64,000 bases of DNA from Candidatus Parcubacteria bacterium (lineage in GTDB: Bacteria > Patescibacteriota > Patescibacteriia > UBA1558 > GWA2-36-10). Both the position numbers and the translations under genes were made by a program. Below the pieces are notes generated by a model. It was given only the letters and a program-made list of their open reading frames with translations, was not told where the DNA came from and made no database searches. The stretch is taken from positions 88,394 through 152,393 of the forward strand of contig JABHSK010000001.1 of NCBI GenBank assembly GCA_018669975.1. Direction: 5' to 3'. Shown here one piece after another: positions 8,020 to 63,382 of the stretch (position 1 is the stretch's first letter; every line of letters begins with the position of its first letter).

Positions 8020-8029
8020 TGTCACCTCC

Positions 8030-9639: not shown

Positions 9640-9646
9640 ACAACCG

Positions 9647-9675
9647 CACCCTACATTTTGTAGGGTGTTTTTTTA
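9647..9675 (+). terminator. Intrinsic terminator after the PRTase gene
   Basis: Hairpin CACCCTACATTTTGTAGGGTG followed by TTTTTTT. Confidence 0.65.
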
Positions 9676-9703
9676 TAAAAATAACTTATCCACACCCAAA
9701 GAC

Positions 9704-9733
9704 TTGACGTTCGGTTTTTGTTCGGTATATACT
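9704..9733 (+). promoter_or_regulatory. Candidate lexA promoter with an embedded GTTCGG-N5-GTTCGG direct repeat (possible operator)
   Basis: TTGACG at 9704-9709, a 17-18 nt spacer, then TATACT. The spacer contains GTTCGG at 9709-9714 and again at 9720-9725. Confidence 0.4.
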
Positions 9734-9760
9734 ATAGGTAGACAAATTAACCACAACAAT

Positions 9761-10360
9761 ATGCCAAGCCTAACAAAAAAACAAAAAGAAATTTTAGACT
9801 TCATAACTCAATTTATCCAAACTAATGCCTATGCACCTAGTTATAGAGAAATCGCCGAATACTTTGGCTACTCCTCCACTGCTACCGTACACGAACATAT
9901 AAAATCTCTAGAGGACAAGGGTCTGTTAACTAGTAATCATAATGCAGCTAGATCATTGGAAGTAGTCGAGCATCGTTTTGGCAAAGCCATAGAGCTACCA
10001 TTGGCCGGACTAATCACTGCTGGTGTACCTATCGAAGCCATCGAAACAAATGAGACCATTGCTGTACCACAAAATTTAGTTAAAGATGAAAACAGTTTTG
10101 TTTTAAAAGTTAAGGGTGAATCTATGATTGAAGATGGAATTTTAAATGGAGATTATGTAGTAGTGGAGAGAAATTTTTATCCTAAAAATGGTGATGTAGT
10201 AGTGGCTTTATTAGATAACACCTATGCCACCCTAAAAAAATACTATCGAGAGAAAGATAGGATTAGACTACAACCAGCCAACAAAACCATGAAACCAATC
10301 TATGCCAAGAACCCAGCTATTCAGGGTATAGTCAAAGCTATTTTAAGAACTTTCTTATAA
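9761..10360 (+). CDS. lexA: LexA repressor (S24 peptidase)
   Basis: N-terminal wHTH (KKQKEILDFI...PSYREIAEYFGYSS..VHEHIKSLEDKGLL). C-terminal S24 domain with GESM (catalytic Ser) and ATLKKYY (Lys). Confidence 0.85.
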   Translation: MPSLTKKQKEILDFITQFIQTNAYAPSYREIAEYFGYSSTATVHEHIKSLEDKGLLTSNHNAARSLEVVEHRFGKAIELPLAGLITAGVPIEAIETNETIAVPQNLVKDENSFVLKVKGESMIEDGILNGDYVVVERNFYPKNGDVVVALLDNTYATLKKYYREKDRIRLQPANKTMKPIYAKNPAIQGIVKAILRTFL

Positions 10361-17063: not shown

Positions 17064-20000
17064 CTAGACACTTGGACTATCAAAACCTTTTAAACGTATC
17101 GCCACTTCTTTATCTATTATCTCCATACCCTCTCTTAAAGATATGGCTCTAGGATTAGTAGTATCCTTTCCTATAGCTGCTAACTGTGCTTCAGTAAATG
17201 CTTTTACTTTACTAAGATAATCAACATCATAATCATTAATTTTAGCTAGTTCAAAATTCAAACTCTCTTTTCCTGCATTAAGAGTGCCAATCGCATAATC
17301 AATCGGATCCATTGGTTTTTCAACACTAGTCTCTACTCCTGTTGATTGTGTTACTTTAGTATCACTACTAACTCCATCCTCATGTTTAACATCTATTATT
17401 TTATTATCTTTATCAAGCACTAAATTATCTACACCCCCATCTTTATCAGTAACTTCCACATCTAGAAGATCATTATGTGTTGTAATTTTAATTGTGTCTG
17501 TCACACCCTTATCTTCAGGTGATATACCTAGAGTATCAGCTGCTTCTTTGGAAAATACTATAGGACCTGTTCCTGGTACATCTAAACTACCTCCTTTGAA
17601 AGCAATACCCCGCTCTGCCATAACCTTAAAGGCATTATTATCAATATCCACTTTTATATTTGGTGGCAAGTCTGCGGACTTAGTTTCTAACACTGGTATT
17701 GCATCAGTAGTTAGTGGTGTTTCTACAACTTTTGGCATCTCCTTAGTAGATAAGTCTGGCTGAACAGTTTTTGGAACTACATCAGCTGATACTGCCTTCG
17801 GATCAGTAGTAACTGCCGCAACTTCAGGTGATACACCACTTGATTGACTATCAGGAGTAGCTGTGGAAGCCTCTGGTCTCTTCAAACTAAAAGTCTTATC
17901 ATTGTCTAATTCTATCCTTTCGGTTGCTAATGGCACCTTCCCATCAAATACCTCTTTCATAGCATCAGCATCCTTGATTGCATCTGGTACACCATCACCG
18001 TTTATATCTATATAAAATAAATCTTTGCGCATAAAACGGGCATCATGGCGAACTAAGGCATATTTTTCTCCAACTGCCACCGGCACCCATTCTTTATCAC
18101 CGCTAGCTTGATCAAAAGCAAATTCCATTTCTCGATAATTTCTAGTAACGTTAGATTCAAAAGCGCCCATTAGCCTTTTCATACTACCGTCATAATTTCT
18201 GAGCTCATCAGTGCCATACAATTTAGATATCTCATGCAAAAAGACGACTCTCTTATCATCGCCCATATTATTATCCTTAAAATAATCCCCAACGAACTGT
18301 TCTAATTGTTTAGTATTATTATCACTCAACATCTTATGTAAAACATCATCTAATTTTCCATCTGCTTTAGCTACGGCATACATGTCATTACTATACTCTG
18401 TATCACCTACTAGAAAACCATCGATTTGAGTCTTTACGCCCTCCACCCTAGTTAATTCTGCCACACGAGCATCTTCAGTAACCACCTCTTCAGCAGTCAT
18501 GGCAACATTACGCTCTTCCATAAATACCTTGAGCTGTTCAGTGCTCATTTCTTGATGAGAACCATCTGGCATCACTACATTTGGATTACCATCACGATCC
18601 CAATCATAAACTTTAACAACGCCATCTTCTGTTTGTAAACTAACAAACTGATCACCAGTTTGAGCGTCCATCTGCACCTCATGCTCTACACCTCCTTCAA
18701 ACTTGGTATCAGAGAAAAATTTCTCTACATTTGTATCAGATAGATGACTAGCGTTTATTCCTGATGCATCATCAAAACTTAAGACAGGTTTGCCATTAAC
18801 TATGTCTATTTTTACTACATCATTATCATGAACCAAATCAGCTAAATTACCTCCCTGTTCGGCATTTAATCCATTAACTGCGCTAGCTGTTTGTGCTTCA
18901 GCCCACCTTGATAGTTCTGCGGCATCATTAAGGTCACCTTTATAGCCTAGAGCTTCGGCATTGCCCGTAAATATAGCTTTGGCTGATCTCCAAATAGAAT
19001 CTGAACCACTGCTCATCTCTGATGAATCTATAGTGTCCTCGAAATGAGTTGGTTGTTCTTGAGCTACAGTTGTACCTGACTGCATAGATTCGTCTACACC
19101 TTCTGTTGAAACACCTGTTTCACTTGAATCCATAGATGGTGCAACGTCAGATTTCCAAGGATCAGGATCACTCTGACCAGATTTCCAAGGATCAGGCTCA
19201 TTTTTCCAATCTGATGTGCCTTTATATACCTCTGGTGCACCCCCTTCATTACTAGAACTAGAATCTACTTCTGGCTCTCCCACCACCACTTTACCTAAAG
19301 CTTTATCAAGTAATCCTGGACCAAAAAAGGAAGCCGCGCCACCTAATATAGCACCACCTGCCATAAATAATAATTTACGACGTTTAGTATGTTTTTCTAT
19401 ACGAGATACATCTACCTCAACTTGTTCTCCCAATTTTTTAGTATTACTACCGACCTGTTCTAGGAGACCAGTCAAGGTATCCTGATTTTTCATCTCTATT
19501 TTATTTACATTATGTACAAAATTTTCTGCCCTACTCTTGAGCAGTGGATTTGAATCTAAAATACCTAACTCTAATTTACTCTTGACAAAGATACTACCTT
19601 CTCTCAAAAAATCTAAATTTTCAACTGGAAAATTAATATCCTCAATTTTTGCCTCAGCCTCCTTCAGCATCTCACCAATTTCACCAAAAACTTTTTGCTC
19701 TTGCCTTAAATTCCTGTCCTCTGCTAGCATATAACCCATACCTGCACCACCCACAGCGCCTAATGCAACTCTAGTGGTACCCTCTAATCTAATAGCAGCA
19801 GAAACAGCAGCGCCAGTTAAGAAACTATAAGCATCATATTTATGTTTATCCCAGAAACTTTTTTCAGCTTCAGTTGCATCTGCTGGCAAGTCATCTATCT
19901 TGCCAGTGGCACTAAAGAGATTATATTTTTTTATATATCCATAAACAGCCGGATTATGATTCTTGAGTTCATCTAGCCTGGTCTTAGCCTCTGAGTTACC

Positions 20001-23000
20001 TCTTCTATGCTGACCAAGAGTCAATGCTAACTGCACAGCCATATTATGTTTTTCCAGGGCTGTAATATCGCTACGCTCTCCACTTGGATACATAGCTTCT
20101 ATTTGCACTAAAGCTGACTTATAAAGACCTTGTTCAATTTTATCTAAAGTGGAAGCCTCTACCTCTACATGGCCAGTCGCTCTAGCTTCTTCAAAAGCAA
20201 CATCTAATTCCTCCAAGGCTACGCCGCTAGTTTGCTCACGTACAGTATTGCTTATGTGTCCACTTAATTTACGTTTAAATTCTTCCGTGTTCTTAAATAA
20301 TTCTACCAAAAGAGCATCTTTCTTCTTTTCAACCTCTTCTTGTTCTTTAGCTTTGGTCTTTTCAAGATTACCCGTTTCTCTTTTGCCTCTTAATTTTCTA
20401 ACTAGTAAACGAACCCCTGAAACTGCTGAAGATGAAATACCAACTGAGGCAAGTCCTCCAATGCCACCTGTAAAAGCAGTGATAGCAAATGAACCAGCTA
20501 TAACCAGTGCTGCATCTACTGCTGCCCTAGCAGCTAGGCGTTTTACTTTTTTTGCACTTAGCAAAGCCATTTCCTGCTGAGCAGCCATATCTATAGTCTG
20601 CTGAATGACTTCATTGATTCTCTCTGCTACCTTACTTAAATCATCATCTGACAACAATTCTTGATCTCCCTGTTGTTCTAGGATATCCTTTATCTTTGTC
20701 TTATAAAAATTAACAATCTTTTCTTTAGTATTTTGTAATACTCTTTCAGCTGCATATAATTTTTGGCTGGCTTTTTCTGCCTCTTCACTAACCTTCTCTA
20801 TAGCAGCTGTTATTTTTTTAGCATTTTCCTCTCTAATTTTTACTAGACTTTCTTCAGCGCTTTTAGCTTTTACCCTGACTTCTGCTAATTCTTTTCCTAA
20901 CTCTGCAACCTCTTTATCATCACTAGGCACTAACTCTGCGGCAGCTAAATCACTCTCAAGCTCAACAACCTCCTTGGATAAAGATGTCACCACAGCTTCT
21001 GCAGCTCTAATTGGTTCTTCTGCCTCTCGGATAGGCTTGTTGGCTATATCTAATTCTGCTTGAGCAGCAGTCACTGCCTTACCAGCCTGCCTATACTCAT
21101 CCATAAAACCTTTAAGCTCTCCTATCTCTGATTCTTCTAAACTCTCAAAAATCATCCTCGGATGAATATCTAAATAACCAAGTTGTTTTTCCAGTTCTTC
21201 TTGAGAAAAAACAGTTGGTACTTCTGGAACAGCCTCTGCAGTTGTTGTAGCCTCTTCAGATTCCGCATCTGCTGCTTTTTCTTCACCTGACTCCACCTCA
21301 GTAGTCGCTGGTTCTTCAGCAACTGGCTCAACATAATTTTCTACAATTTCTGAATCTGTAATTTTCTCACCATCAGCTTCTCCTTTATGCTCAAATTTAC
21401 CACCTGTCTCTATTTTAATAACGCTACCTGAGACTTCACCATAAACTCTCAAGGTGGCACCATCTCTAACTGTAATATCACAACCAATAAGATCTCCGAC
21501 AGATAAAATTATGTATCGCTTCAAATCTTCCGTTTCACCATTAAGCATTTCATACTCTTTATCCTCTTCGGCAGTCTCTGTAGTTGTAGTTTCTGTGACT
21601 GTCTCAACTAGAGCTTCTTCAGATGTACCTACACCTGCATCTCCCAAATCTATACTCCTTTCGTTTGCGATACGTAATATTGTATCTTGAGCCCGTTCAA
21701 CATCTTTTAACTTTTGTTCAAGAATAGCCTTTTTCCTCACATCTTTTTCTTTACTAGCCTGCCCCTTATATAATTCAAGATCTTTTAAATTCTTTGCAAA
21801 AAAACGTTGAATCATCTCTGGTGGCGTTTTCTCTAAAGCAGCTTCAAGATACTGCTGTGATCGTACACGGAGTGCGTCAATTTGCTTCAACGACTCTTCA
21901 CTTAAATCTTTTTTAAGTGAAATACCAAGTTTTTGAAATATCTTATCTTCAATTGAATTATAATCTCTTCTTAATTTGTCCCATTCTTTTGCATCTATAT
22001 CCCGTTGAAATAGTTTCTCTGCTTTTGCGCGTAAGCCACCCTCCTCTGATATACCTTCACTTGTACCAGTTCCCTGCATATAGTCAGACAAAACATAAAA
22101 AGCATCTTCATTAGGGCCATCACCTACCTTAGTTACTAATTCTTCTAATGATTCTGCATCATATTGTTGTTCAGCGGTGGTTTCTGTAGCTGTATCAGCT
22201 ACACCCGCCTCTTTAATAACTTCTGATTCATGCCCTGCTGGTACTTCAGGTATAATTCCACTACCTTCACTTGTAGCTGGTGTTGGTGACTCTACTGACT
22301 CTGCACTATCTTCATCAGACACTTCAGAACCGTAAGGTTTTAAAATAACACCTGCTTCAACACTTAATTCTAGAATTCCTTGTGTCGTATCATCATATGC
22401 TGCTTGAATTTCTACTTTTATAGCCTCTACGTCATCGCCTGAACTGTCTTCAATAATTATCAAACTTCCTTCTTCGAAGGCTGCTACGAACTCATCCATC
22501 TTAAGATGAATTTTTCTAAGTTTCTCTATGTCCTCAGGTTTAAAACCCTCATGCTCCAAAACTAATCTTGCAAGCTCCACTTGACTCTTCAAGTCTTCGG
22601 TTTTATTAATCAAAAATTCTCTAGCTTCTTCTAATATCTCAGATTTTTTTTCTATATCATGTTCAGCATCACCCACAGGCACTTCATCAGCTGGCGTAGA
22701 CTCTCTATCAAAAGATCTACTATGTTGCTTGATATCAGACATAGTCTCTGCGCGCTTCTCTGCTACCTGTCTTTTGACTTCACCCTCATCTATAGACTCG
22801 ACTGATTTAGATTCAGTCAATTTAGCCAGGGCAAATTCTTTGTATTCATCAAAAAGTTTAGCGATTTTACTAGTTACCGAAACAATTTCTACATGAGCAA
22901 CGGGAGACTCACCTTCTGCCTTAGCTTCACACTGAGCAATAATCTCATCTGCAGCAACTTGAACTTCACTAATTTCAGCAGTAATAAATTCTGAAAAACT

Positions 23001-23063
23001 TAATTGTTCTGGTGATTTTTCACCAGTATCTAATGTGTCTTCTTTGGAATGTTTTCTTGCCAT
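17064..23063 (-). CDS. Giant (1999 aa) acidic coiled-coil membrane protein with C-terminal Ca-binding DxDxDG motifs
   Basis: One uninterrupted ORF. The N-terminal 900 aa are E/K/D-rich coiled coil. Three Gly/Ala-rich TM helices lie mid-protein. The region includes a tandem EPDPWKSGQSDPDPWKS duplication. The C-terminal part contains DINGDGVPD and DWDRDGNPN calcium-binding-like motifs. Confidence 0.85.
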   Translation of the reverse strand: MARKHSKEDTLDTGEKSPEQLSFSEFITAEISEVQVAADEIIAQCEAKAEGESPVAHVEIVSVTSKIAKLFDEYKEFALAKLTESKSVESIDEGEVKRQVAEKRAETMSDIKQHSRSFDRESTPADEVPVGDAEHDIEKKSEILEEAREFLINKTEDLKSQVELARLVLEHEGFKPEDIEKLRKIHLKMDEFVAAFEEGSLIIIEDSSGDDVEAIKVEIQAAYDDTTQGILELSVEAGVILKPYGSEVSDEDSAESVESPTPATSEGSGIIPEVPAGHESEVIKEAGVADTATETTAEQQYDAESLEELVTKVGDGPNEDAFYVLSDYMQGTGTSEGISEEGGLRAKAEKLFQRDIDAKEWDKLRRDYNSIEDKIFQKLGISLKKDLSEESLKQIDALRVRSQQYLEAALEKTPPEMIQRFFAKNLKDLELYKGQASKEKDVRKKAILEQKLKDVERAQDTILRIANERSIDLGDAGVGTSEEALVETVTETTTTETAEEDKEYEMLNGETEDLKRYIILSVGDLIGCDITVRDGATLRVYGEVSGSVIKIETGGKFEHKGEADGEKITDSEIVENYVEPVAEEPATTEVESGEEKAADAESEEATTTAEAVPEVPTVFSQEELEKQLGYLDIHPRMIFESLEESEIGELKGFMDEYRQAGKAVTAAQAELDIANKPIREAEEPIRAAEAVVTSLSKEVVELESDLAAAELVPSDDKEVAELGKELAEVRVKAKSAEESLVKIREENAKKITAAIEKVSEEAEKASQKLYAAERVLQNTKEKIVNFYKTKIKDILEQQGDQELLSDDDLSKVAERINEVIQQTIDMAAQQEMALLSAKKVKRLAARAAVDAALVIAGSFAITAFTGGIGGLASVGISSSAVSGVRLLVRKLRGKRETGNLEKTKAKEQEEVEKKKDALLVELFKNTEEFKRKLSGHISNTVREQTSGVALEELDVAFEEARATGHVEVEASTLDKIEQGLYKSALVQIEAMYPSGERSDITALEKHNMAVQLALTLGQHRRGNSEAKTRLDELKNHNPAVYGYIKKYNLFSATGKIDDLPADATEAEKSFWDKHKYDAYSFLTGAAVSAAIRLEGTTRVALGAVGGAGMGYMLAEDRNLRQEQKVFGEIGEMLKEAEAKIEDINFPVENLDFLREGSIFVKSKLELGILDSNPLLKSRAENFVHNVNKIEMKNQDTLTGLLEQVGSNTKKLGEQVEVDVSRIEKHTKRRKLLFMAGGAILGGAASFFGPGLLDKALGKVVVGEPEVDSSSSNEGGAPEVYKGTSDWKNEPDPWKSGQSDPDPWKSDVAPSMDSSETGVSTEGVDESMQSGTTVAQEQPTHFEDTIDSSEMSSGSDSIWRSAKAIFTGNAEALGYKGDLNDAAELSRWAEAQTASAVNGLNAEQGGNLADLVHDNDVVKIDIVNGKPVLSFDDASGINASHLSDTNVEKFFSDTKFEGGVEHEVQMDAQTGDQFVSLQTEDGVVKVYDWDRDGNPNVVMPDGSHQEMSTEQLKVFMEERNVAMTAEEVVTEDARVAELTRVEGVKTQIDGFLVGDTEYSNDMYAVAKADGKLDDVLHKMLSDNNTKQLEQFVGDYFKDNNMGDDKRVVFLHEISKLYGTDELRNYDGSMKRLMGAFESNVTRNYREMEFAFDQASGDKEWVPVAVGEKYALVRHDARFMRKDLFYIDINGDGVPDAIKDADAMKEVFDGKVPLATERIELDNDKTFSLKRPEASTATPDSQSSGVSPEVAAVTTDPKAVSADVVPKTVQPDLSTKEMPKVVETPLTTDAIPVLETKSADLPPNIKVDIDNNAFKVMAERGIAFKGGSLDVPGTGPIVFSKEAADTLGISPEDKGVTDTIKITTHNDLLDVEVTDKDGGVDNLVLDKDNKIIDVKHEDGVSSDTKVTQSTGVETSVEKPMDPIDYAIGTLNAGKESLNFELAKINDYDVDYLSKVKAFTEAQLAAIGKDTTNPRAISLREGMEIIDKEVAIRLKGFDSPSV

Positions 23064-37571: not shown

Positions 37572-38516
37572 CTAGAGCATATCGTCCATGTTCAAATCCT
37601 CTATATCACCTCTCATAGCATTACTAGGAATACAGCGTAAATAAGCCGCCGTCATACGTATATCTTTGTGTCCTAGAAGTTGTTTTATCTTCATAATATC
37701 TGAACCATTGTTAATCAAATTTATAGCAAAAGAATGCCTAAATCTATGAACATGAAATTTAACACCTGATTCCTCTACTATTTTAGTCACAGTATTTTTT
37801 AACCCATGCTCAGTAAACTTATTATCACTATTGTTTGATACAAAAAAATATTCTGTTTTATACCCTAGACTTTTACGCTCCTTTAAATAATCTTTTAAAA
37901 TGCTAATAAGCCTTCTGTTTAGAGGTATTACTCTGTTTATTTTTGATTTTGAAATCTCAGCCCTAACTGTCAATTCTTCTATATCAAAGTTAAAATCTAT
38001 TAACTTTAAGCCTAATAACTCACTTTTCCTTATTCCTGTGTATAAAAATAGATTAAAAATAGCCGTATTTCTCTTTCTTACCAAATTATTAATCCAATCT
38101 ATATTTATAACAATTGCTGAAAATATTTTATCCAGATCTTTTTTTTGGATAAATTTTTTGTCAGCATACTCTACATTTGGACACTTGATTTCTTTAAAAG
38201 GATTTTCCTTTATTTTCTTGTGTTTTTCCAGCCATACCATAAAAACATTTAACTTTGACCAATACGTAGCTGTTGTACTTCTTTTTATTCCAGTTTTAAT
38301 CTCTCCTCTACCAACTTCTCTTTCTCTTTGTTCTAGTCTTTTAAAAAATTTAACCATGGTTTCAGCTGATAAATCAGCCACTGTTACGCCAGGATTTAGT
38401 TTTAGAAATAAATTAAATGCGCCAACATAGCCTCTGATAGTAGTATCAGATAATTTACCGACATATTTACATTCTTCAATAAAATCTTGGTGTAAAAGTT
38501 TTAAATTTTTCTTCAT
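37572..38516 (-). CDS. int: Tyrosine recombinase / phage integrase
   Basis: C-terminal catalytic motifs HVHRFRHSFA and LLGHKDIRMTAAYL (R..HxxR..Y) with an N-terminal SAM-like domain. Confidence 0.9.
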   Translation of the reverse strand: MKKNLKLLHQDFIEECKYVGKLSDTTIRGYVGAFNLFLKLNPGVTVADLSAETMVKFFKRLEQREREVGRGEIKTGIKRSTTATYWSKLNVFMVWLEKHKKIKENPFKEIKCPNVEYADKKFIQKKDLDKIFSAIVINIDWINNLVRKRNTAIFNLFLYTGIRKSELLGLKLIDFNFDIEELTVRAEISKSKINRVIPLNRRLISILKDYLKERKSLGYKTEYFFVSNNSDNKFTEHGLKNTVTKIVEESGVKFHVHRFRHSFAINLINNGSDIMKIKQLLGHKDIRMTAAYLRCIPSNAMRGDIEDLNMDDML

Positions 38517-50767: not shown

Positions 50768-51181
50768 TTATTTTTTATTTAATTTTCTAGCATACTCTAT
50801 AGTTTCTTCTTTCTTTGCTATCTCAGTATATAATAGATTTGGATCTGGTTTACTATTTATTCTCCATAAATCTAATCTATCTGCATCCCAACATGTTTGA
50901 ATAGTAATATCATTACTTTGAGCATTTGATTCACTATGATTAGCACAGGCAAAAATAAGTTGTTCAAATTGTTTATCTGTCACATCCAATAAATTTTTAT
51001 TGTACAAAAGTTTTAAATACTGAGCAGATCGTTTACCATGTTGGCCATCAAATCCGTCATCTCTCCTTCTTATATCATGAAAATATGCAAATAAACTCAA
51101 AACTTTTTTATCGGCATTATTGTAATCAGCTAAATAGTGGCCGATTTTCTCTACATTTTCAAAATGATCTTCTTGATGCAT
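50768..51181 (-). CDS. HD-domain phosphohydrolase
   Basis: H...FHDIRR...H...CWDADRLD, with the HD and D motifs of the HD superfamily. Confidence 0.65.
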   Translation of the reverse strand: MHQEDHFENVEKIGHYLADYNNADKKVLSLFAYFHDIRRRDDGFDGQHGKRSAQYLKLLYNKNLLDVTDKQFEQLIFACANHSESNAQSNDITIQTCWDADRLDLWRINSKPDPNLLYTEIAKKEETIEYARKLNKK

Positions 51182-51183
51182 AT

Positions 51184-52017
51184 TTAATTTATAACTTCAC
51201 AATAGTAGAAATATGGAGGCCCATAAGTATTTTTTATGCCTAATATTCTTACTTTTTTTACACCTGTACATGCATCATATTCCATATGACCCTTATATCC
51301 GCTTTGATAGGTGCCCTCTACATATCTTTCTCTGCAATTAAATTTTGTAGTGGGAGGAAAATAACAATTCATATCTTTAACATGTCCACTTTGTCCATCT
51401 ATGTATACTTGTAATTGTGCATAAGAATTATCAACTTCTCTGGGGGCATATTCAGTTATTGCATAAACATAATATTCTTGAGTCTTGTCTCTATATACTT
51501 GCCAATAAATTATGCTAATAATTAATACTACTATCAATATTCCAAAAATTAGCTTTTTCATAATATTTTTATTACTTGCTTCTTGTCTTTGTTTATTGTG
51601 CGTATTATTAATATTTGTTTTCATAGCTATGTTTTCTTTATTATCAAAAAATTCCTTACATGTTTCAATAACTTCTGACGGCACTACAGTTGCTTTAACC
51701 AAGTATTTGACGGCACCTAGTTTATTAGCTCTATTTATATCTTCCTTCTGCGAATGATTAGTAAGAAAAATAATTGGAATATCTTTTGTTTTTTTATCTT
51801 TTTTTAAAATTTCTGTAGCTGCAAGACCACTCATTACTGGCATTGTTATACTCATTAATATAAGATTGGGCTTTTCTTTTAAAACCTGCTCTACAAGCTC
51901 TTTGGCTTCAGCAGGTGGATTTAAATAATATTTATAATTAAATCCTGCATTTCTAAACTTAATAGCATACATATTAGCTAGCATCTCCTCATCTTCAAAA
52001 TGTACAATTTTCTTCAT
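51184..52017 (-). CDS. Membrane-anchored pseudo-receiver (REC-like) domain protein lacking the phospho-acceptor Asp
   Basis: The N-terminal 120 aa match the CheY-like fold (FEDEE acidic pocket, KYLVKA). The canonical LILMDIxMP is replaced by ILMSITMPVMSG (Asp replaced by Ser). A TM helix and a Cys/Tyr-rich extracytoplasmic domain follow. Confidence 0.55.
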   Translation of the reverse strand: MKKIVHFEDEEMLANMYAIKFRNAGFNYKYYLNPPAEAKELVEQVLKEKPNLILMSITMPVMSGLAATEILKKDKKTKDIPIIFLTNHSQKEDINRANKLGAVKYLVKATVVPSEVIETCKEFFDNKENIAMKTNINNTHNKQRQEASNKNIMKKLIFGILIVVLIISIIYWQVYRDKTQEYYVYAITEYAPREVDNSYAQLQVYIDGQSGHVKDMNCYFPPTTKFNCRERYVEGTYQSGYKGHMEYDACTGVKKVRILGIKNTYGPPYFYYCEVIN

Positions 52018-53909: not shown

Positions 53910-54140
53910 TTATATTTTAGCTCTATTTAAAATATTACCCATTATCCAATACTTATAATCACCCTCATAGTAATATCTATAAATATCCATCTTACCATGC
54001 AAAGTAAACTCTTCTTCTTTGCCTGACTTAGATATTTTTATTTTATATTCATCAAACAGCTCCAGCTCATTCTCTTTTACTATATATTCATGAGGAGCTA
54101 TTTTGGCGTAAGTTTTTGCAAATATCCAAGGCATTTCCAT
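53910..54140 (-). CDS. Hypothetical protein (76 aa)
   Basis: ORF. Confidence 0.4.
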   Translation of the reverse strand: MEMPWIFAKTYAKIAPHEYIVKENELELFDEYKIKISKSGKEEEFTLHGKMDIYRYYYEGDYKYWIMGNILNRAKI

Positions 54141-54161: not shown

Positions 54162-55019
54162 TTATAATTTTTTCCAATTCTTATTAACCAATTTATAATT
54201 ACTCAAGTTTAAGGTAGAAAAACCTTTACTATTATCCAATATTGATGCAAATGATCTAATGGTGTGATCCTCAACTCTTTCTAATAAATTACTAAATTCC
54301 GGCTTAACTATATCGTATCTAAATTTATCCCAATCACCAGACATTCCTTGGTGAGTCCTTCCATGCTTCACTCTATTTCCAAAAATTTCTGCTTTTCCGA
54401 TATACAGTAATTTCTTTTTTGTATTAGCTAAATAATATATTACATTTACTTGTCCTGCATGTCTTGATAATTCCTTATGAGAATACCACCCTGTACTTCT
54501 AGAAATTAAATGTTTTTTATCTTTTAAAAATAACCACCCAAATACATTAGCGTCAGCCAACCTTTCAAATAAAGAATTCCATTCTGTTTTTATTTGAATG
54601 AATGGCTCAATGTAAATTTCTTTTAAAGAAGCCCCTCTAAGAGTTATTACTTCTTGTTGCCCCGCTAACATATGACTACGAAATTTTTTTAACTCACCTG
54701 CATTTTCATGTAATTCTTTTTGTGATTTTAATATCACATAACTATTTATAAATTCACGACGCAATACCATTAGAAAGTCTTTGCCAATGTCCCACCTTAA
54801 CTGGTAAACATTTGTGTTGTTTCTTCTATTAATATGGCGAATCTTTGCCTTATAAGACTTTTTTTTATATTTAATCTTAACCTCTCTTGAATGACCGGGC
54901 GTAATCGGTACTCCGTGTAGAAAATCTTTTTCGTACTCCTTGGGAATAATAGTACCCCATTCAAAAGTAGACCTGTCTATTTTTTTATAATAAGGATGTT
55001 TGGTGTATTTTTTTTTCAT
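54162..55019 (-). CDS. GIY-YIG nuclease domain protein with N-terminal unknown domain
   Basis: The C-terminal NVIYYLANTKKKLLYIGKAEIFGNRVKHGRTH fits GIY...YIG...R...H. Confidence 0.55.
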   Translation of the reverse strand: MKKKYTKHPYYKKIDRSTFEWGTIIPKEYEKDFLHGVPITPGHSREVKIKYKKKSYKAKIRHINRRNNTNVYQLRWDIGKDFLMVLRREFINSYVILKSQKELHENAGELKKFRSHMLAGQQEVITLRGASLKEIYIEPFIQIKTEWNSLFERLADANVFGWLFLKDKKHLISRSTGWYSHKELSRHAGQVNVIYYLANTKKKLLYIGKAEIFGNRVKHGRTHQGMSGDWDKFRYDIVKPEFSNLLERVEDHTIRSFASILDNSKGFSTLNLSNYKLVNKNWKKL

Positions 55020-55079
55020 ATAATTATTTTTTACAGTAGCAATCTTTATTACCTGCTTCTCTAAAGATGTTTTTAATAA

Positions 55080-57737
55080 TTAATATTTGATATTAAAAAA
55101 CTTTTTTACATTCACTGGAAGCTGACACTCACCATATTCTTTATCAATCTTAATATTTGTATCGATTATTTTTTCTGCATTTATTTTTTCTTCTTCGAGT
55201 CGATCCACTGACTGCTCGCTTATTATTAAATCCAATATACTTCCACCGCTATTATCTTCAATTTTATTATCAAATAACTCCTGATTTAATTTTGCGCTTG
55301 CCTCCTCTATCTTGAGCAGTTCGTTCTTCATTTTTAATTGAATACTTCTCTTGTGTTTTAAGGCCATAAAATGCAACGACTCTCTTAACTTCTCTTTACT
55401 GACTGGCTCTTGTAATAATTCTTCCCAGGACAAATCAGGAAGTTTAAAATCATTGTTAATGAAAAACAATTGGTCATATATTTTTTTTATTATTTCCGTA
55501 CTAATTACATTTACTAATAATTTTTCTGGAACTTTTTTGATAAAATCTTTTATACCATAAAATATATCAGCCAGCTCTTTATACTTTTCTTCAATGATCT
55601 CAAAGCTATCATCATCATTCTCTATTATGTGTAGAGAATATAACACAAAGCAAAGCGGTAAAGCAATTATGTTTACTAGCGAAATTAACTTATATTCATC
55701 CTCCTTAAGTTCATTAAACAAAAAATCACCTTCTTTAATGTCAGACCACATCCTATATAGCAAGTTAATAGAGCTGTCAATATAATCCTTTTTTGACATT
55801 AATACATTAGTTTGCTCATCCCCAAACTCTATCTTAATACCATTCTGAAACCAAGTTAAAGATGCAATCAACTGATTTATTGCCATTGCAGCGGATAAAT
55901 CTAACTTAAAATCTTTTTTATTTATTTGAGTTACAGTGCGATCTACAGTTCTATTCACCAAAGAATTTAATTTTTGTTTCACGTCTTCTATTCCTGGTGA
56001 TTCATCTTTGTCTTTTTTATTTTCTTCTTTGTCCAAGCTAACGTCCTCTTTAACAACATATTTCTTGTAGTGGTCTTGCACCTGTCTAGCTACACCACCA
56101 AACAACTGTCCAAAAATATCATATTTATCATTAGCAACTGCTCTTGTTAATATAGTAGATGCATCTTGATATTCTGATTTTTCTTCCACAAAATATCTTT
56201 GCTCCGGCAATTCTACTTGTTCCTCTAGTTCCTCTTGCTCACCTAGTTTACTGCCTTTGAATATGTTATTTTCATACCCCTGCTTAACCTCAAAGGGAGT
56301 AGTAAGTTCTATTATAGACTTTGCTATTTCAATATTATCAATATAACTACCAATAGAATTAAGATGTCCTGTAATTTTATTTTCTGCACCTGGTTTATAA
56401 ATAGTATAATTATGTAACCAAACCTTGTTACTTGTATCACCTCTCATTTTTAAACAAATAATATTTGTGTTTTTGCTGAGATGTTCTTTTATAGTTAAAT
56501 CTAATAAACATTCAATTCTACCTTCTCCACTGTTAATATTTTCTTTTATAACTTCAACATCATTTATAATTACACCAACCTTACCCTTAGCTTCTGAATA
56601 GTAGTCGATATAAAGAATAGACTCCTTAATAAAGGCTCCCTTAACTTGTATTTTGTTTTTAGATATTGATGGTATATAATCTTTCGATATATCCGAAACT
56701 CTAATGTCAGTTATTTTCTCAATCTTCTCTTTAGTTATATGATTATTCCAAATATTGGAGATACCTGAGCCTATAGTTTTCTCTGCGTTTATAAACATAC
56801 CGCATTCAACATTCCCGTTATTAGCATATTTAATTAATGCGGGTGATGAAATATTAGCGCTTCCGGAAAATAAATATTCATGAGAAGCATTACAAAAATA
56901 AAGCATTTTAGCATGCAATCTTCGTGAAGTATCGTCAGCTTTAAATTTGTGAAGTGAAACAAAAGGTAAGCTAGTTTTATTCTCTATAAAATATTTAATA
57001 GGAAAATTAGTAGTGTGGTCTTGAATAATTATTTTTATCTTAGTATTGCTATATATTTTTTTTAGTTTATCAATAACCGCTAGCTTACTATCAAAGTATG
57101 GTGCCATTAATACGATCTCATCAATGTCTTGGGGTAGTTGTTTTGTAATTTGATCGAGCAACGGTGTATCTAGATTATGTAAAAATAAATTATTACTTGA
57201 CTCAGCATCTTTTGGTATCCAACCAGTATCATTTAAAATATTATTAATCCTTTTCTCTGTTGCGGGGTTCAGATAATTACGCTTTGTTAAGTCTATAATA
57301 AAGTCTTTTACATTTTTAAATACGGGTAAATGTTCTTTATTATCTTCGGAATATTCATACTTATTAAACATTTCAAAACTACTACCATACCCCGGAACAG
57401 TTAAATTGCCACTACCAATTAATACTTTACCTTTTGTTTTACTTGTTAACAAAATTATCTTTGGATGAAATACTCCTTTAACTCTAATTGGATCAAGCGA
57501 ATAGTACTTACTACCACAAAACTGAATATCTCCTACCTCTTCATTTATAACGTCTTCGTACTGAGAACCATCCATTATAATCGCATTACAATAACAACCA
57601 GAGTTCACTAAATTTTTTAAAATAATTTTTTCGTAAAACGCAAGGCTACTATTGTAAGTTAAAATTAAGCAGTGTTCGTAATCATTACTGCTAATAATTT
57701 CATCTATAATGCTAATTGTTTTATTTTGTATGCTCAT
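55080..57737 (-). CDS. Phospholipase-D-family (tandem HKD) nuclease with 550-aa C-terminal unknown region
   Basis: HKD motif 1 is HPKIILLTSKTKGKVLIGSGNLT. HKD motif 2 is HAKMLYFCNASHEYLFSGSANIS. 885 aa in total. Confidence 0.75.
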   Translation of the reverse strand: MSIQNKTISIIDEIISSNDYEHCLILTYNSSLAFYEKIILKNLVNSGCYCNAIIMDGSQYEDVINEEVGDIQFCGSKYYSLDPIRVKGVFHPKIILLTSKTKGKVLIGSGNLTVPGYGSSFEMFNKYEYSEDNKEHLPVFKNVKDFIIDLTKRNYLNPATEKRINNILNDTGWIPKDAESSNNLFLHNLDTPLLDQITKQLPQDIDEIVLMAPYFDSKLAVIDKLKKIYSNTKIKIIIQDHTTNFPIKYFIENKTSLPFVSLHKFKADDTSRRLHAKMLYFCNASHEYLFSGSANISSPALIKYANNGNVECGMFINAEKTIGSGISNIWNNHITKEKIEKITDIRVSDISKDYIPSISKNKIQVKGAFIKESILYIDYYSEAKGKVGVIINDVEVIKENINSGEGRIECLLDLTIKEHLSKNTNIICLKMRGDTSNKVWLHNYTIYKPGAENKITGHLNSIGSYIDNIEIAKSIIELTTPFEVKQGYENNIFKGSKLGEQEELEEQVELPEQRYFVEEKSEYQDASTILTRAVANDKYDIFGQLFGGVARQVQDHYKKYVVKEDVSLDKEENKKDKDESPGIEDVKQKLNSLVNRTVDRTVTQINKKDFKLDLSAAMAINQLIASLTWFQNGIKIEFGDEQTNVLMSKKDYIDSSINLLYRMWSDIKEGDFLFNELKEDEYKLISLVNIIALPLCFVLYSLHIIENDDDSFEIIEEKYKELADIFYGIKDFIKKVPEKLLVNVISTEIIKKIYDQLFFINNDFKLPDLSWEELLQEPVSKEKLRESLHFMALKHKRSIQLKMKNELLKIEEASAKLNQELFDNKIEDNSGGSILDLIISEQSVDRLEEEKINAEKIIDTNIKIDKEYGECQLPVNVKKFFNIKY

Positions 57738-59385
57738 TTAATATTTTCTTACCTTTGATGGTTATAGACACCTTCTTCTCGTTTCTTCTTTCGACAAGGT
57801 TTAAATCTTCTAAAAAATTAATAACATTTTCAAATTTTGGTGCATTTATGTTCGGTCTTGCTTCCTTAATTCCCTTTATTCTACCGGCGCTATATTCAAA
57901 ATGAAAAGTATTGTTCTTGTACCAAGATAGCTTGGCTAGAGCTACTCGACAGTGTTGTTTGATTACAAGTTCCTTCGCTATCCATTCAACCATATCTTTA
58001 ATTTTTAAATCCTTATCAGTTAATTTTTCAAAACCTAAAAAGAAATCATCAATTGACAAGCTGACTGTCTCTCCGATACGCCCAAAATCCCAATATGGCG
58101 AATTGTTAACTCTGTAATAATTAAATCTTAAATATAAAACTGACAACAAATATACTAAATGTGCTAAACAGTCTTTATTATTATTACTTTTTATATTCTT
58201 TTGAACATTTTTATAAACATCCCACTCATTAATCTTTGATTCCAGGTTACAACTTTTATCAAAGTCGCTTCCAGTTTTTCCTGCAGATATAATTTTCACT
58301 AAATCTTTTAGCTTAGTATCTATACTTAATTCTTGCTCGTAGTTATCATTTACCGACTGAAAGCCATCTTCAGTTAAATTATTTAATTCTCTAATGAACG
58401 CCGACAAATCAATATTTCGATTATAAACTACCTCTGTCATAACTGAAAAATAACTTTCTATTGCGTATATCAGCAATTGTCTAGCTTGGAATATTCTCCA
58501 GTACTCTAAACAATTAACTAATTTCTTGTTAGATTTATATCCTAAATTTTGAACATTTGAATAAAGCACAATCTTTTGAAAATCTTCATAGTCAAAGCTT
58601 TGGTCCCCTTTCTGTTCTACCATATCCAACATCAACAATAATGACTCTCTTCTTGCCCTAGCCCCATTAGGAGGGTTATCCGAATAATAAACACTAAAAT
58701 CATTAAGCTCTTTGCTAATTTTCTCAGGTCTAAAAATTATATCCTGTAATAATTGCTGTTCTTTAATAGAAATATGTAAGTTAGTCACACTACATTTCTC
58801 CGCATACTCTTTTAATACATCTGCTGGGATATTATTATCTTTTTTATCGCAATATTTTTTGAAATATTTTGTGTCTTTGATGTTGTCTTCATAGGCCTCA
58901 GCTAAGCTCTTGCCATAAGTTTTTGTTAATCCAATAAAATCAGCCCCCTCAATATCAGCAGTAATGCCAACCTGTTTCATTTTTTGCGAATATATCCAGT
59001 AGTTATCTTTATACTTACTTACAAATGCGTCATCCCATTCGTATGTTTCTTTCTCTCCGTTGTTTTTAATGTCTGTTCGGAATATTTCAATACCATTTAA
59101 ACCAACCTTCGATGAATCCTGATGTAAAAAACCATTAGCATACAAAAAAGCTAATGATTTTATTTTTAAATACTTTTTATAATTTTTATTATTTTTAGGA
59201 TGGTCAGACTTAATAAACCTATATAAGACCCAGGAGAAAAAAGAATAATATCTTAACCTGTCAGTGATATTTGATATCCCAGGCAACAATCTTTCTAGCA
59301 TAATAACACCAACATTCATGTAACCTAAAAAATCTCTACCACCCTGAGCTGTGTTATATTTTTCTGTCCACTGAGGTAATATCAT
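57721..59385 (-). CDS. Large hypothetical protein (554 aa), translationally coupled to the PLD gene
   Basis: Overlaps the PLD gene start by 17 bp. No domain recognized. Confidence 0.55.
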   Translation of the reverse strand: MILPQWTEKYNTAQGGRDFLGYMNVGVIMLERLLPGISNITDRLRYYSFFSWVLYRFIKSDHPKNNKNYKKYLKIKSLAFLYANGFLHQDSSKVGLNGIEIFRTDIKNNGEKETYEWDDAFVSKYKDNYWIYSQKMKQVGITADIEGADFIGLTKTYGKSLAEAYEDNIKDTKYFKKYCDKKDNNIPADVLKEYAEKCSVTNLHISIKEQQLLQDIIFRPEKISKELNDFSVYYSDNPPNGARARRESLLLMLDMVEQKGDQSFDYEDFQKIVLYSNVQNLGYKSNKKLVNCLEYWRIFQARQLLIYAIESYFSVMTEVVYNRNIDLSAFIRELNNLTEDGFQSVNDNYEQELSIDTKLKDLVKIISAGKTGSDFDKSCNLESKINEWDVYKNVQKNIKSNNNKDCLAHLVYLLSVLYLRFNYYRVNNSPYWDFGRIGETVSLSIDDFFLGFEKLTDKDLKIKDMVEWIAKELVIKQHCRVALAKLSWYKNNTFHFEYSAGRIKGIKEARPNINAPKFENVINFLEDLNLVERRNEKKVSITIKGKKILNEHTK

Positions 59386-59398
59386 TTAATTTTTTACA

Positions 59399-60895
59399 CT
59401 ATTTAACTTTATTTAATACCTTATATATCTCCACCATTGCTAAAGTATCCAACTTACAATATTTTAACAAATCAGATAAAATTTTATCCTTGTCCTCTTG
59501 ATTTTTACCACCTATAATTGTTTCCATCCAAATACGTTGAGCAGCGGCTCCCCCGCCAATATCTAATTCTTTATAGCTAAGACTTGGAATAAGCACTGGC
59601 AATACTTTTTTTATAGAGGCACTACCAAAAAAATCTTTATCCGCATACCAGCCCTCTGCAAAAGGTATCATTAAATCTACAATTCTATCATTTACATCAA
59701 GTAAAAAATCACTATGCTCTGGTAAAATATCTGCCATTGTAATATTACACCTTTTTTCAAAGCCCTCGCACCAGACAATAACTGATCCTTTCTCTCCAAT
59801 ATCTTTTTTTAATTGCTTCAAAAGACCCTCTACTGGTAGAGTATTATCTACGTGTAAATACTCCTTATGTTTCAGCTCACCATCAGGAGATTCTAATACA
59901 TGTAGAGAATATTGAAATGGTATCTGTTGATATGGCTTTATACCGTTATAAGCTGGTATAACACCAGATAAAGTCTCATAATCTAAAAAATAAAGTGGGT
60001 ATTGAAAAGTCTTTAAAAAATCTTTAATTTCTTCTTTACTAATTATCCTTTCTCCGCTCTTAGTTGCCTGAACTTGATAATGTTGTTTTACGGTGAGATT
60101 AGTATCATCGGGAACATCATGTATAGATATAACTCCATCGTCTTCAAAATTACCTATCTTTCTAACTCCAGGGCTACATAAATTATATATACTATATTTA
60201 TCTAAGTCTGGATTAAGAATTTTATAAATATCCAACCAATTACTAAACGCTCCCGACTTAGCGTGCCGAGGTGATGGGTCTGGCATCTCTGTTGCTACTA
60301 ATACTGCCTTGGCCTTATCTATATTAACAAGTGTTTCATCTATCATACTTCTGACTGCTGTTGTAACTTCTGTAGTAGTGGTAATTTCATTATAATCAAT
60401 ATCTCCATCTCTAACATATTCATTGTTTACATGAATAACAAAAACATCTTTAATGTTTAAGCCAGATTTTTCTAAAACAATAGTTTGAAATGCTAAATCA
60501 TACTCGTGTTCTTTTTTAGCTTTGGTGCTTGATTTAATTTCATAGAGATTATATGTACCATCTTCATTCCGTTCCAAAGCATCAAATATACACGTTATAC
60601 CATCAACTTCTAAACGCCCTTGGAATAATATCTTTGTATTATCTACAAGAGCTTTCTTGGTAACAGCTGGTAAAGCCATATATTTTTTAAAATCAAATTC
60701 TCCTTTAGTTTTATATCCTAGAGTTATTCCATCTGGAAAAAGTTTTTCTGCGTATGATTCAAATAAATTACCAGCATCAAAAACTGCTTGAGTATCAGCA
60801 TCAACCTCTGGTAATATTTTTTTATTATGTTTTTCTAGCCATAGCCAAACAGGATGCCTGAGGTATAACATGTAATTTGATTTTGACAGGATCAT
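59399..60895 (-). CDS. DUF2779-like protein: N-terminal PD-(D/E)xK nuclease plus C-terminal DnaQ-like exonuclease fold
   Basis: IFDALERNEDGTYNLYEIKSS gives the D...ExK motif. The C-terminal YFLDYETLSGVIPAYNGIKPYQQIPFQYS is typical of DUF2779. Confidence 0.6.
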   Translation of the reverse strand: MILSKSNYMLYLRHPVWLWLEKHNKKILPEVDADTQAVFDAGNLFESYAEKLFPDGITLGYKTKGEFDFKKYMALPAVTKKALVDNTKILFQGRLEVDGITCIFDALERNEDGTYNLYEIKSSTKAKKEHEYDLAFQTIVLEKSGLNIKDVFVIHVNNEYVRDGDIDYNEITTTTEVTTAVRSMIDETLVNIDKAKAVLVATEMPDPSPRHAKSGAFSNWLDIYKILNPDLDKYSIYNLCSPGVRKIGNFEDDGVISIHDVPDDTNLTVKQHYQVQATKSGERIISKEEIKDFLKTFQYPLYFLDYETLSGVIPAYNGIKPYQQIPFQYSLHVLESPDGELKHKEYLHVDNTLPVEGLLKQLKKDIGEKGSVIVWCEGFEKRCNITMADILPEHSDFLLDVNDRIVDLMIPFAEGWYADKDFFGSASIKKVLPVLIPSLSYKELDIGGGAAAQRIWMETIIGGKNQEDKDKILSDLLKYCKLDTLAMVEIYKVLNKVK

Positions 60896-61635: not shown

Positions 61636-62697
61636 TTAATTATTTATGGAAGCAATAACTCCTCTGCCGAAAATATATTCCTTATGATAGTTAATCGAAA
61701 CTAATGAGGGGTAAAATTCCGTATCTTTAGGTAAAAAATTTATTTTTTGAATTTTCGGCAAATAATCATGTTCTTTAACTCTTGGATCAATTAAAATATT
61801 GTAATTTTCATCAAAAGTAATTGCTCCAGAATCTAATGCTTTATGCAAATCTGAAGTAATTAAAATACCATTATTTACATCGTATGAACCGCCATGAGAA
61901 ACAGGAATAATATGGGCAGCTTCTAATAGATTACTCTCTTTAAATACAAAATACTTGCCCGTTATTGCACAGATTCCTTCATAAACATCCAATAATTCAT
62001 TTCTAAAATTAACCTGATCTAAACCCCTTCCTATTATCCTATATTTATTACGTTCTGTATCTTTTTTGTGTCTAGGTATATTTTCAATTTCTGCAAAAAA
62101 TATTTCTAAAAAATCTTTAACATTGCTATTCAATTTTTCTCCATTTTCATCTTGAATAGCTAACCCAGCATTTTTTAAATAATTAAGCCAATAAGAATAG
62201 GGGCGCATAGCTTCTTCCATATTACTCTTTACTAGGCTATTGAAGTCTGGCTCCCTTTCATTATTTGTATAATAAATAATCTCATTTATGGGTAACGAAA
62301 GAAAATTTTTAATTTCATCCCTATCCCAATATTTGTCTACCCCATATTTTAAAAACAAAAATTTACATAAAACAGCATATGGCCTAAATCCATTAAAACT
62401 ATATGTCCCTAATATACTAGCTATCATTTTTTGATATTGATCTTTGTTTTTGCTTCCATAAATATTTAATAGTTCATTACCAATATCTGTGATTTCCCAC
62501 TTACTTGTTTTTTTAAGAATGTTTAATTTTTTTAAATCTGGGTACTTAGATTTTAAAATAACTGGTTTAGATTTCGCATAAAACTCAAGATTATTTTGAT
62601 TTTCGTATAATTCTTTAATAAGGGTATCAATATTATTTTTGATATCACTTAAAATCTGATAAAAATATTTTATTTCATTCTTCCTTTTTCTATTCAT
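61636..62697 (-). CDS. HNH-motif restriction endonuclease (putative R subunit)
   Basis: The C-terminal LEAAHIIPVSHGGSYDVNNGILITSDLHKALD matches the HNH His/Asn pattern. Overlaps the methyltransferase gene by 8 bp. Confidence 0.6.
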   Translation of the reverse strand: MNRKRKNEIKYFYQILSDIKNNIDTLIKELYENQNNLEFYAKSKPVILKSKYPDLKKLNILKKTSKWEITDIGNELLNIYGSKNKDQYQKMIASILGTYSFNGFRPYAVLCKFLFLKYGVDKYWDRDEIKNFLSLPINEIIYYTNNEREPDFNSLVKSNMEEAMRPYSYWLNYLKNAGLAIQDENGEKLNSNVKDFLEIFFAEIENIPRHKKDTERNKYRIIGRGLDQVNFRNELLDVYEGICAITGKYFVFKESNLLEAAHIIPVSHGGSYDVNNGILITSDLHKALDSGAITFDENYNILIDPRVKEHDYLPKIQKINFLPKDTEFYPSLVSINYHKEYIFGRGVIASINN

Positions 62698-63382
62698 ATA
62701 ATCTTTTACGTGCTAAATTACAATATTTCTTATTATTTTCAAAGCCAATAAACTTTTTTTTCATTCTTTTAGCCACTAACATAGTCGTGCCACTTCCAAC
62801 GAATGGATCTAAAACAATTTTAGATTTAGGAAAACAGCTCAATATATCTTCAACCATTTTTTCTGGAAATGCGCGAGTATGGCTGCCTTTAATACCAACT
62901 GGCCTCCACTCTTTCCAATCAAAAACATCATGATGATTTATATTATTTTCAAGTACTGTCTTTCTGTCCTTAACTAACCAATATATTCTTTCTGTCCAGG
63001 GATAAAATCTGATTTTGTGAAAATTTTGACTTCTGTTTATCCACACAAGCTCCTGCTTTATAAGAAAATTAGTTTTAAATAACCACTCATATGGAGAAAT
63101 CTGCGAACCATTCTTTATTCTGTTTTTATGATTATAAAAAATTGAACCATTATTTTTTAAAACACGGAAACACTCATTTAATACTTGTAACTGAAAATCT
63201 TGATAGTCAGATTCTTTCATATTATCCTCATAAGGTTTATGCTTTTTGAAACCTGTATGATGATCATTGCCTAAATTATATGGGGGCGAAGTAATTATTA
63301 AATCAATAGAATTGCTATCTATCTTACCTAGACCTTTTAAACAATCAATGCATTTTATTTTATTTAAAAAAATTTTATTCAT
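62690..63382 (-). CDS. DNA amino-methyltransferase (N6-adenine or N4-cytosine, beta class)
   Basis: Motif IV IITSPPYNLG precedes motif I LDPFVGSGTT. Confidence 0.85.
   Translation of the reverse strand: MNKIFLNKIKCIDCLKGLGKIDSNSIDLIITSPPYNLGNDHHTGFKKHKPYEDNMKESDYQDFQLQVLNECFRVLKNNGSIFYNHKNRIKNGSQISPYEWLFKTNFLIKQELVWINRSQNFHKIRFYPWTERIYWLVKDRKTVLENNINHHDVFDWKEWRPVGIKGSHTRAFPEKMVEDILSCFPKSKIVLDPFVGSGTTMLVAKRMKKKFIGFENNKKYCNLARKRLYE

Follow-up and report, generated by a model that had tools for sequence, protein, structure and literature searches.

A widespread gene pair encoding a predicted phospholipase D nuclease and its partner in a Parcubacteria genome, a probable helicase-less sibling of Azaca

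The defense system Azaca was reportedly first described by Millman et al. in 2022. It comprises ZacA (a DUF6361 protein), ZacB (a phospholipase D [PLD] protein), and ZacC (a superfamily 2 [SF2] helicase). ZacABC cleaves phage T4 DNA in vitro, all three proteins are needed, and cleavage depends on both the PLD active site and the Walker A motif of ZacC, while recognition of modified DNA has been suggested for Azaca and T4 (bioRxiv 10.1101/2025.07.10.664194). Here, we analyze a 64-kb stretch of DNA (64,000 nucleotides, hereafter the window) from a Candidatus Parcubacteria bacterium, a member of the candidate phyla radiation (CPR) with a small, tightly packed genome, in which two overlapping genes resemble the ZacA-ZacB part of Azaca but are not accompanied by a helicase. 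These genes, g2 and g3, are the second and third of four co-directional open reading frames (ORFs) transcribed in the order g1, g2, g3, and g4. The initial annotation of this locus, made from the DNA letters, had treated all four genes as one nuclease-rich defense cassette. Comparison with related loci shrinks this claim to a smaller but real finding, i.e., a widespread and unannotated gene pair with a putative function in defense.

All four ORFs were recovered in the ORF list of the window at the coordinates first reported, with a gap of 13 nt between g1 and g2, a gap of 60 nt between g3 and g4, and an overlap of 17 nt (57721-57737) that places the start of g3 inside the end of g2. Approximately 90 related loci were compared, namely, 10 metagenomic contexts of g2/g3 relatives, 80 GTDB species loci found with a partner-protein alignment, and one plasmid, and 89 loci were examined as DNA. 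The g2-then-g3 order was kept in all 10 metagenomic contexts, and a profile search of ORFs detected a g3-type gene directly downstream of the g2-type gene in about 83 of the 89 loci. Those without a called pair were truncated contigs or degraded copies, or ORF calling had failed in DNA of high GC content. In 74 of 76 junctions, the two genes overlap or are separated by no more than 7 nt, with overlaps of 1 to 17 nt in most. Translational coupling, already proposed for the window genes, is supported by this conserved layout, and g2 and g3 can be regarded as putative coupled partners. When all neighboring ORFs were clustered, no further family was found to travel with the pair. A g4-type gene was present beside the pair in none of the 89 other loci, and a g1-type gene only in L002, L003, and L094, which represent one element in three samples. 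Neither type was found in the closest relative, L001, whose g2 is 77% identical. A metagenome scan with the close-clade alignment retrieved only two loci, both already in the set. Co-conservation had been named beforehand as the check that could overturn the four-gene claim, and it went against g1 and g4, whereas g2-g3 was kept. Because g1 and g4 are not co-conserved with the pair, the four-gene system fails and the two-gene one survives. The functional unit is thus probably a two-gene operon, g2-g3 (59385..55080, minus strand), with g1 and g4 as separate residents of the stretch.

That all four genes nonetheless form one integrated four-component defense system appears extremely improbable. 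Their tight co-directional packing would fit such a system, as would the absence of terminator-like sites between them in a promoter/terminator scan and the fact that all four proteins are nuclease-related or partners. However, tight packing is normal for small Parcubacteria-type genomes, and the scan was uninformative, performing no better than on shuffled sequence, so it does not tell the limits of the operon. Besides the neighborhood counts given above, which leave g4 unpaired and g1 with a single other lineage, g4 belongs to a large family whose members turn up in unrelated contexts. The proposal that three nuclease folds act here as one machine was likewise not borne out by the comparative data.

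We then turn to the protein that would carry the catalytic activity. The two HxK...GSxN motifs initially recognized in g3 are present and belong to half-sites that are invariant in 34 homologues (H91, K93, G108, S109, N111, and E122 for half-site 1; H275, K277, G292, S293, N295, and E311 for half-site 2). The AlphaFold2 (AF2) model of g3 has a mean predicted local distance difference test (pLDDT) score of 71.7, with values above 90 over most of residues 20 to 320, and residues ~20 to 345 adopt, very confidently, a bilobed PLD fold. Residues 87 to 342 aligned with positions 107 to 357 of the 586-position PADLOC profile of ZacB (1.2e-12), and this profile was matched by all 34 g3 relatives, the best at 5e-20. 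The Pfam family PLDc_2 was found in 29 of these 34 relatives and RE_NgoFVII in one family member. Hence, g3 is assigned from its sequence to the PLD (HKD) superfamily as a predicted nuclease whose closest known family is ZacB. In a Foldseek search of the PDB, the PLD region matched Tdp1 best (8.4e-10), followed by SauUSI, the NgoAVII R-protein, NucT, and Zucchini. The remainder of the protein is modeled as a small all-beta domain, for which no Pfam match was obtained, and a long helical extension. In none of the 34 homologues did Pfam, NCBIfam, or PADLOC profiles detect a domain in the C-terminal half, and the extension of g3 lacks an ATPase motif.

The partner protein, g2, had been described as a large protein without any recognizable domain. 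This did not hold, since Pfam detects a C-terminal winged helix (HTH_45, 3.8e-5) and the N-terminus weakly matches ZacA and DUF6361. The latter relationship is clearer at the family level. All 10 close relatives of g2 matched the ZacA profile and 7 of the 10 matched DUF6361 (best, 8e-4), while 65 of 85 diverse relatives matched the PADLOC ZacA profile (best, 2.4e-12). An N-terminal motif is also conserved in the family (W6, G16-R17-D18, L33-x-G36-I37, T41, R43, R45-Y46, F49, and W52). These matches point to g2 as a remote but consistent homologue of ZacA/DUF6361, with the relationship holding for the family as a whole. The predicted model of g2, obtained with a 98-sequence alignment, is mostly helical (pLDDT of 95.5; predicted template modeling score [pTM] of 0.93). 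A Foldseek search with this model returned nothing significant, with no close solved relative. We read g2 as a predicted multi-winged-helix DNA-binding protein, with a likeness to type IIS enzymes that we take as no more than a lead.

As in Azaca, the pair consists of a DUF6361-type gene followed by a PLD gene, the PADLOC ZacA and ZacB profiles recognize both families, and the setting is that of a defense island. In contrast to Azaca, the pair lacks the ZacC SF2 helicase, both here and in the ~90 related loci. Pfam, PADLOC, and NCBIfam searches revealed no helicase or P-loop domain in g1 to g4. No helicase family is conserved beside the pair in the 89 loci, where the sporadic UvrD-like or HsdR neighbors belong to adjacent Gabija-like or type I restriction-modification (R-M) systems. 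UvrD-like neighbors were also considered as stand-ins for ZacC and rejected, since few loci have them and, in some of these, the UvrD-like protein is GajB, paired with an OLD-family GajA-like neighbor. Both proteins of the pair are also larger than their Azaca counterparts, with 554 residues in g2 versus 396 positions in the ZacA profile and 885 residues in g3 versus 586 in ZacB. The matches are limited to residues 15 to 73 of g2 and 87 to 342 of g3, and the beta domain and helical C-terminal half of g3 have no counterpart detected in Azaca. PADLOC profiles do not call the pair as any system, and no helicase-less form was found described in the literature on DUF6361, Azaca, PDC-M27, and type I-embedded PLD systems. 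The initial view that no named system is present was therefore right insofar as no complete one was found, but the core does match the ZacB and ZacA families. Overall, we consider it likely that the pair is a helicase-less sibling of Azaca.

Other described systems share less with the pair. DISARM has an HKD PLD domain in common with g3, which matched the DrmC profiles of PADLOC (8e-10) and NCBIfam (15.8 bits; cut-off of 133). However, the pair lacks DrmA, DrmB, DrmD, and the methylase partners (no DrmA or DrmB profile match was obtained), and DrmC carries one HKD per short chain, whereas g3 carries two in one long chain. An HKD PLD domain as in g3 is also found in the stand-alone defense PLD nucleases PDC-M27B, DpdK, and PbeA. 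PDC-M27B was matched by 14 of the 34 g3 relatives (best, 1.9e-15) but not by g3 of the window, and PDC-M27A by none of 85 partner proteins. PDC-M27 was rejected as the identity of the pair, the matches being partial, no stronger than those to ZacB, and leaving g3 and the partners unmatched. The restriction enzymes SauUSI and NgoAVII (R-protein), both in the Foldseek list, combine a PLD-fold nuclease with a separate DNA-recognition module. In the pair, recognition would instead fall to a protein other than the nuclease, and the pair has neither a conserved cognate methyltransferase nor an ATPase such as those of SauUSI and the NgoAVII N-protein. BfiI, another PLD-type restriction enzyme, was not matched in this analysis.

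The family of g2 comprises 2176 representatives at an E value of ≤1e-3 and 1224 at ≤1e-10 among 1.84 billion 50%-identity clusters. A single peptide pattern of the partner family matches 194 GTDB species, which is a lower bound on its spread. Phyla with the pair include Chloroflexota, Bacteroidota, Pseudomonadota, Myxococcota, Planctomycetota, and Acidobacteriota. Bacteroidota copies are located on a common stretch of 12 to 20 kb with 81 to 91% nucleotide identity (L060, L062, L063, L066, L068, L069, L077, L082, and L086) in the genera Paenimyroides, Empedobacter, Halpernia, Chryseobacterium, Terrimonas, Pedobacter, and Sphingobacterium. Such identity across genera suggests that a mobile element spreads the pair. 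Another copy is carried by the 175-kb plasmid pUYM01 of Undibacterium sp. YM2 (L093, 5359-9544), where RefSeq names both products “hypothetical protein.” The DNA of the Parcubacteria cassette itself gave no match to plasmids by blastn in distant mode. Only 4 relatives were found in 2.9 million viral contigs and none in phage GenBank records, a near-absence indicating that the pair is not typically phage-borne. Neighbors of the pair further include a Gabija-like OLD plus UvrD arrangement, Mrr, NERD, a BglII-like protein, PDDEXK_4 plus CHAT, integrases, and Macro. Judged from these sequence comparisons, the pair has the profile of a mobile module resident in defense islands. As separate observations, the PLD proteins of L019, L020, and L021 are 97 to 99.8% identical although the metagenome-assembled genomes are labeled Ignavibacteriae, Lachnospiraceae, and Prolixibacteraceae, which reflects either very recent cross-phylum transfer or a binning error. 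Four Burkholderiales loci (L052, L053, L058, and L075; about 1100-9900) encode a 1740-aa DEAD/Helicase_C plus UvrD protein on the same strand upstream of the pair.

Of 43 dereplicated loci, 16 have type I R-M genes within 10 kb of the pair. L029, L040, and L083 carry the pair inside the type I operon, between hsdS and hsdR, and in L002, L016, and L070 it directly follows hsdR-hsdM-hsdS. This arrangement raises the alternative that the pair is a non-autonomous add-on to type I R-M systems or another motor, with HsdR translocation replacing ZacC. The need of Azaca for a nucleoside triphosphatase (NTPase) does leave a gap that a motor could fill. Nonetheless, most loci have no type I R-M system nearby, and about one-third (14 of 43 well-flanked loci, near-duplicates removed) have the pair entirely alone, without a closely spaced co-directional neighbor. 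In addition, type I operons serve as landing sites for unrelated defense genes, for instance, a g4-type gene after hsdR, and no hsd genes are visible within the 64-kb window. Obligate dependence on such a motor is, in our view, distinctly unlikely.

We instead put forward, tentatively and as a reading that still falls somewhat short of probable, that the pair is an autonomous, ATP-independent, two-component DNA-targeting immune system, widespread in bacteria including CPR/Parcubacteria. It would be a sibling of Azaca in which domains of its own or, where the pair is nested in type I R-M operons, a borrowed HsdR motor would replace the helicase. PLD nucleases such as Nuc and BfiI act through a phosphohistidine intermediate, a chemistry independent of metal ions and ATP. 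For the pair, the sequence data show the gene pairing, the invariant catalytic residues, the ZacA and ZacB homology, and the defense-gene surroundings, whereas assembly of a complex, binding and cleavage of DNA, activity against phages, and the distinction of self from non-self are inferred. The g2 and g3 proteins would be translated in a coupled manner and assemble into a complex, in which the ZacA-like, winged-helix-rich g2 would bind DNA and supply target recognition or licensing. The PLD subunit g3 would cut foreign DNA via a covalent phosphohistidine intermediate without metal ions, and, as no NTPase is present, without ATP. The outcome would be restriction of phage or plasmid DNA, by the pair alone or beside the type I R-M systems so often near it. 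Self DNA could be spared in two ways, through recognition of modified DNA or through dependence on neighboring R-M systems. The 430-residue helical extension of g3 may hold the partner or replace the contribution of ZacC.

Several points weigh against reading the pair as a helicase-less sibling of Azaca with a role in defense. ZacC is required in Azaca, so a pair without an NTPase may work differently or need a partner encoded elsewhere. The window shows only 3.1 kb upstream of the cassette, and a type I R-M system or helicase could lie past position 64000. For g2 of the window itself, the matches over residues 15 to 73 are weak, both to ZacA in PADLOC (1.7e-3) and to Pfam DUF6361 (E value of 0.12; 11.8 bits for a gathering score of 25). 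The C-terminal extension of g3, without a recognizable domain, is poorly modeled (pLDDT of 26 to 76). The neighborhood counts come from a crude ORF caller, and the family of the pair is known from sequences and predicted models alone. Finally, the top structural match of g3, Tdp1, is a repair phosphodiesterase rather than a nuclease.

The last point would suit a non-defensive pair, i.e., a Tdp1-like repair phosphodiesterase with a DNA-binding partner, or a module for maintenance or exclusion of mobile elements, for which the copies on plasmids and on the common mobile Bacteroidota stretch could also be cited. However, Tdp1 matches g3 mainly because both have two HKD motifs in a single chain, and the nearest families in sequence are the defense PLD nucleases ZacB, DrmC, and PDC-M27B. 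Moreover, the neighbors of the pair are overwhelmingly restriction or defense genes, and its patchy, horizontally transferred distribution is typical of defense genes. We thus find a role outside defense very unlikely.

Coordinates of the cassette, of the g3 domains, and of other features in the window are compiled in Table 1.

Table 1. Features of the cassette and of the surrounding window
Feature	Coordinates	Strand	Details
g1, DUF2779/Cas4-like gene	60895..59399	minus	498 aa; ORF list
g2, core gene 1, ZacA-like partner	59385..57721	minus	554 aa; ORF list
g3, core gene 2, ZacB-like PLD nuclease (predicted)	57737..55080	minus	885 aa; ORF list
g3, PLD catalytic region (predicted), aa 1-345	56703..57737	minus	Two complete HKD half-sites in a single chain
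g3, small all-beta domain, aa 363-443	56409..56651	minus	AF2 model; seven strands; pLDDT of ~90 or more
g3, helical C-terminal extension, aa 450-885	55083..56390	minus	AF2 model; low-confidence linker at 480-579
g4, probable GIY-YIG-type gene	55019..54162	minus	285 aa; ORF list
76-aa ORF (MEMPWIFAKTYAKIAPHEY...)	53910-54140	minus	Directly after g4
DUF6998 protein, 161 aa	53141..53626	minus	Pfam DUF6998, 1.7e-5, below gathering score; three genes downstream of g3
N6/N4 DNA methyltransferase	62690-63382	minus	Pfam N6_N4_Mtase, 1.2e-36
HNH_2 endonuclease	61636-62697	minus	Pfam HNH_2, 3.5e-11; overlaps methyltransferase gene
Response-regulator receiver protein, then HD domain	50768-52017	minus	3.9e-15; HD subthreshold, 8.3e-4
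Tyrosine recombinase	37572-38516	minus	Phage_integrase, 4.1e-33
1999-aa ORF	17064-23063	minus	No Pfam family at E ≤ 1e-4

The gene upstream of the pair, g1, encodes a protein with matches to Pfam Cas_Cas4 (PF01930; residues 103 to 188, 1.2e-5, 25.9 bits for a cut-off of 22.7) and DUF2779 (PF11074; residues 302 to 427, 2.6e-37, 128.3 bits for a cut-off of 23.3). As initially annotated, it is predicted to be a fusion of a Cas4-like PD-(D/E)xK domain with a DUF2779 exonuclease-like domain, a known solo-Cas4 layout. Within the RNase H-like superfamily, DUF2779 was assigned to the 3′-5′ exonuclease clade, with a noted co-occurrence with DUF83/Cas4 (PMC3985635). Solo Cas4-DUF2779 fusions such as MMSYN1_0389 of JCVI-syn3.0 have the same two-domain layout as g1, in which the DUF2779 domain is of the DEDD exonuclease type (PMC13621843; PMC3985635). 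This likeness applies to g1 only and not to the conserved pair. An alternative reading is that the pair has a lineage-specific three-gene form, in which the Cas4-like/DUF2779 exonuclease would be an accessory, e.g., degrading the DNA ends made by the PLD protein. Here, the DUF2779 gene precedes the pair by 13 nt; in L002, L003, and L094, it follows the pair after 10 nt. These are 2 of ~8 independent close-clade loci (≥44% identity), with the gene in different positions, which a random housekeeping gene would be unlikely to show. Conversely, it is absent from L001, L004, L006, L091, L092, and all 80 GTDB loci, and DUF2779 proteins are widespread as stand-alone genes, one being quasi-essential in JCVI-syn3.0 (PMC13621843). 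Furthermore, g1 and its DUF2779 counterpart in L002 share only 34% identity, less than the 45% of the partner proteins. We therefore judge the three-gene form unlikely. In L002 (14288-18414) and L094 (11288-15414), the DUF2779/Cas4-like gene is tightly followed by a gene for an 876-aa UvrD-type helicase, and together they end an hsdR-hsdM-hsdS-pair operon; these two genes may be a nuclease-helicase module of their own.

For g4, no Pfam, PADLOC, or PDB family match was found, including in a PDB profile search with the g4 family. Its homologues comprise 231 clusters; the 120 listed are 52 to 81% identical (an identical NCBI entry aside), and some are named GIY-YIG by NCBI, as is the identical protein (GIY-YIG nuclease family protein). 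In 31 homologues, Y195, Y196, Y206, G208, R216, H223, E250, and N263 are invariant, giving the pattern IYY..LYIGKA..R..H..E..N, which fits the GIY-YIG catalytic pattern. A comparison with the N-terminus of E. coli UvrC by hhalign gave a weak alignment with an E value of 8.7e-4 but a probability of 23%, both approximate, and the value against TIGR00194 (uvrC) was 0.023. The initial GIY-YIG label thus draws on the invariant pattern, the weak UvrC alignment, and the NCBI name but not on a Pfam or PDB match, and we regard g4 as probably a GIY-YIG-type nuclease with an uncharacterized N-terminal domain. Elsewhere, one contig has a g4-type gene immediately behind hsdR, and a Bacteroidales genome has one that stands alone. 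When g4 was compared with a DUF4357 protein beside the pair in L009, the similarity was at motif level only.

The small ORF that follows g4 has no relative in any locus examined. The DUF6998 gene further downstream has an uncertain link to the pair: in the distant context P0013, a DUF6998 gene and the PLD gene overlap at the stop of the latter, but none was found near the pair in the 89 loci examined as DNA. On the other side of the cassette, domain matches indicate that a putative R-M-like pair is present, consisting of the overlapping methyltransferase and HNH_2 genes, in agreement with the R-M module first noted there. The description of the stretch as nuclease-rich and defense-island-like is likewise supported. 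The receiver/HD genes lie downstream of the cassette in the same low-GC stretch. GC content is 44 to 54% at 30 to 36 kb and falls to ~30% at 36 to 64 kb, with the drop at the tyrosine recombinase gene. No rRNA or tRNA was found in the 54% GC patch at 30 to 32 kb, and Rfam and tRNA scans of the whole window gave no matches. An island containing the cassette may have one of its ends at the recombinase gene. Location on an integrated element, as initially proposed, is compatible with the low-GC stretch that begins near this gene, although this is not proof.

If the pair does defend on its own, it would add one more widespread system, with thousands of sequence clusters, to the catalogue of bacterial defenses, made up of genes for which RefSeq annotation and PADLOC profiles, as they stand, offer nothing beyond “hypothetical protein.” As a ZacA/ZacB-type core working without the NTPase that is strictly required in Azaca, it would provide a natural comparison for that system and would bear on the roles of the helicase and of DUF6361. 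Where the pair is nested in type I R-M operons, as it frequently is, one could test whether a restriction motor and a nuclease encoded apart from it cooperate. Finally, few candidate immune modules have been documented in Parcubacteria (CPR) genomes, and the pair would be one of them.

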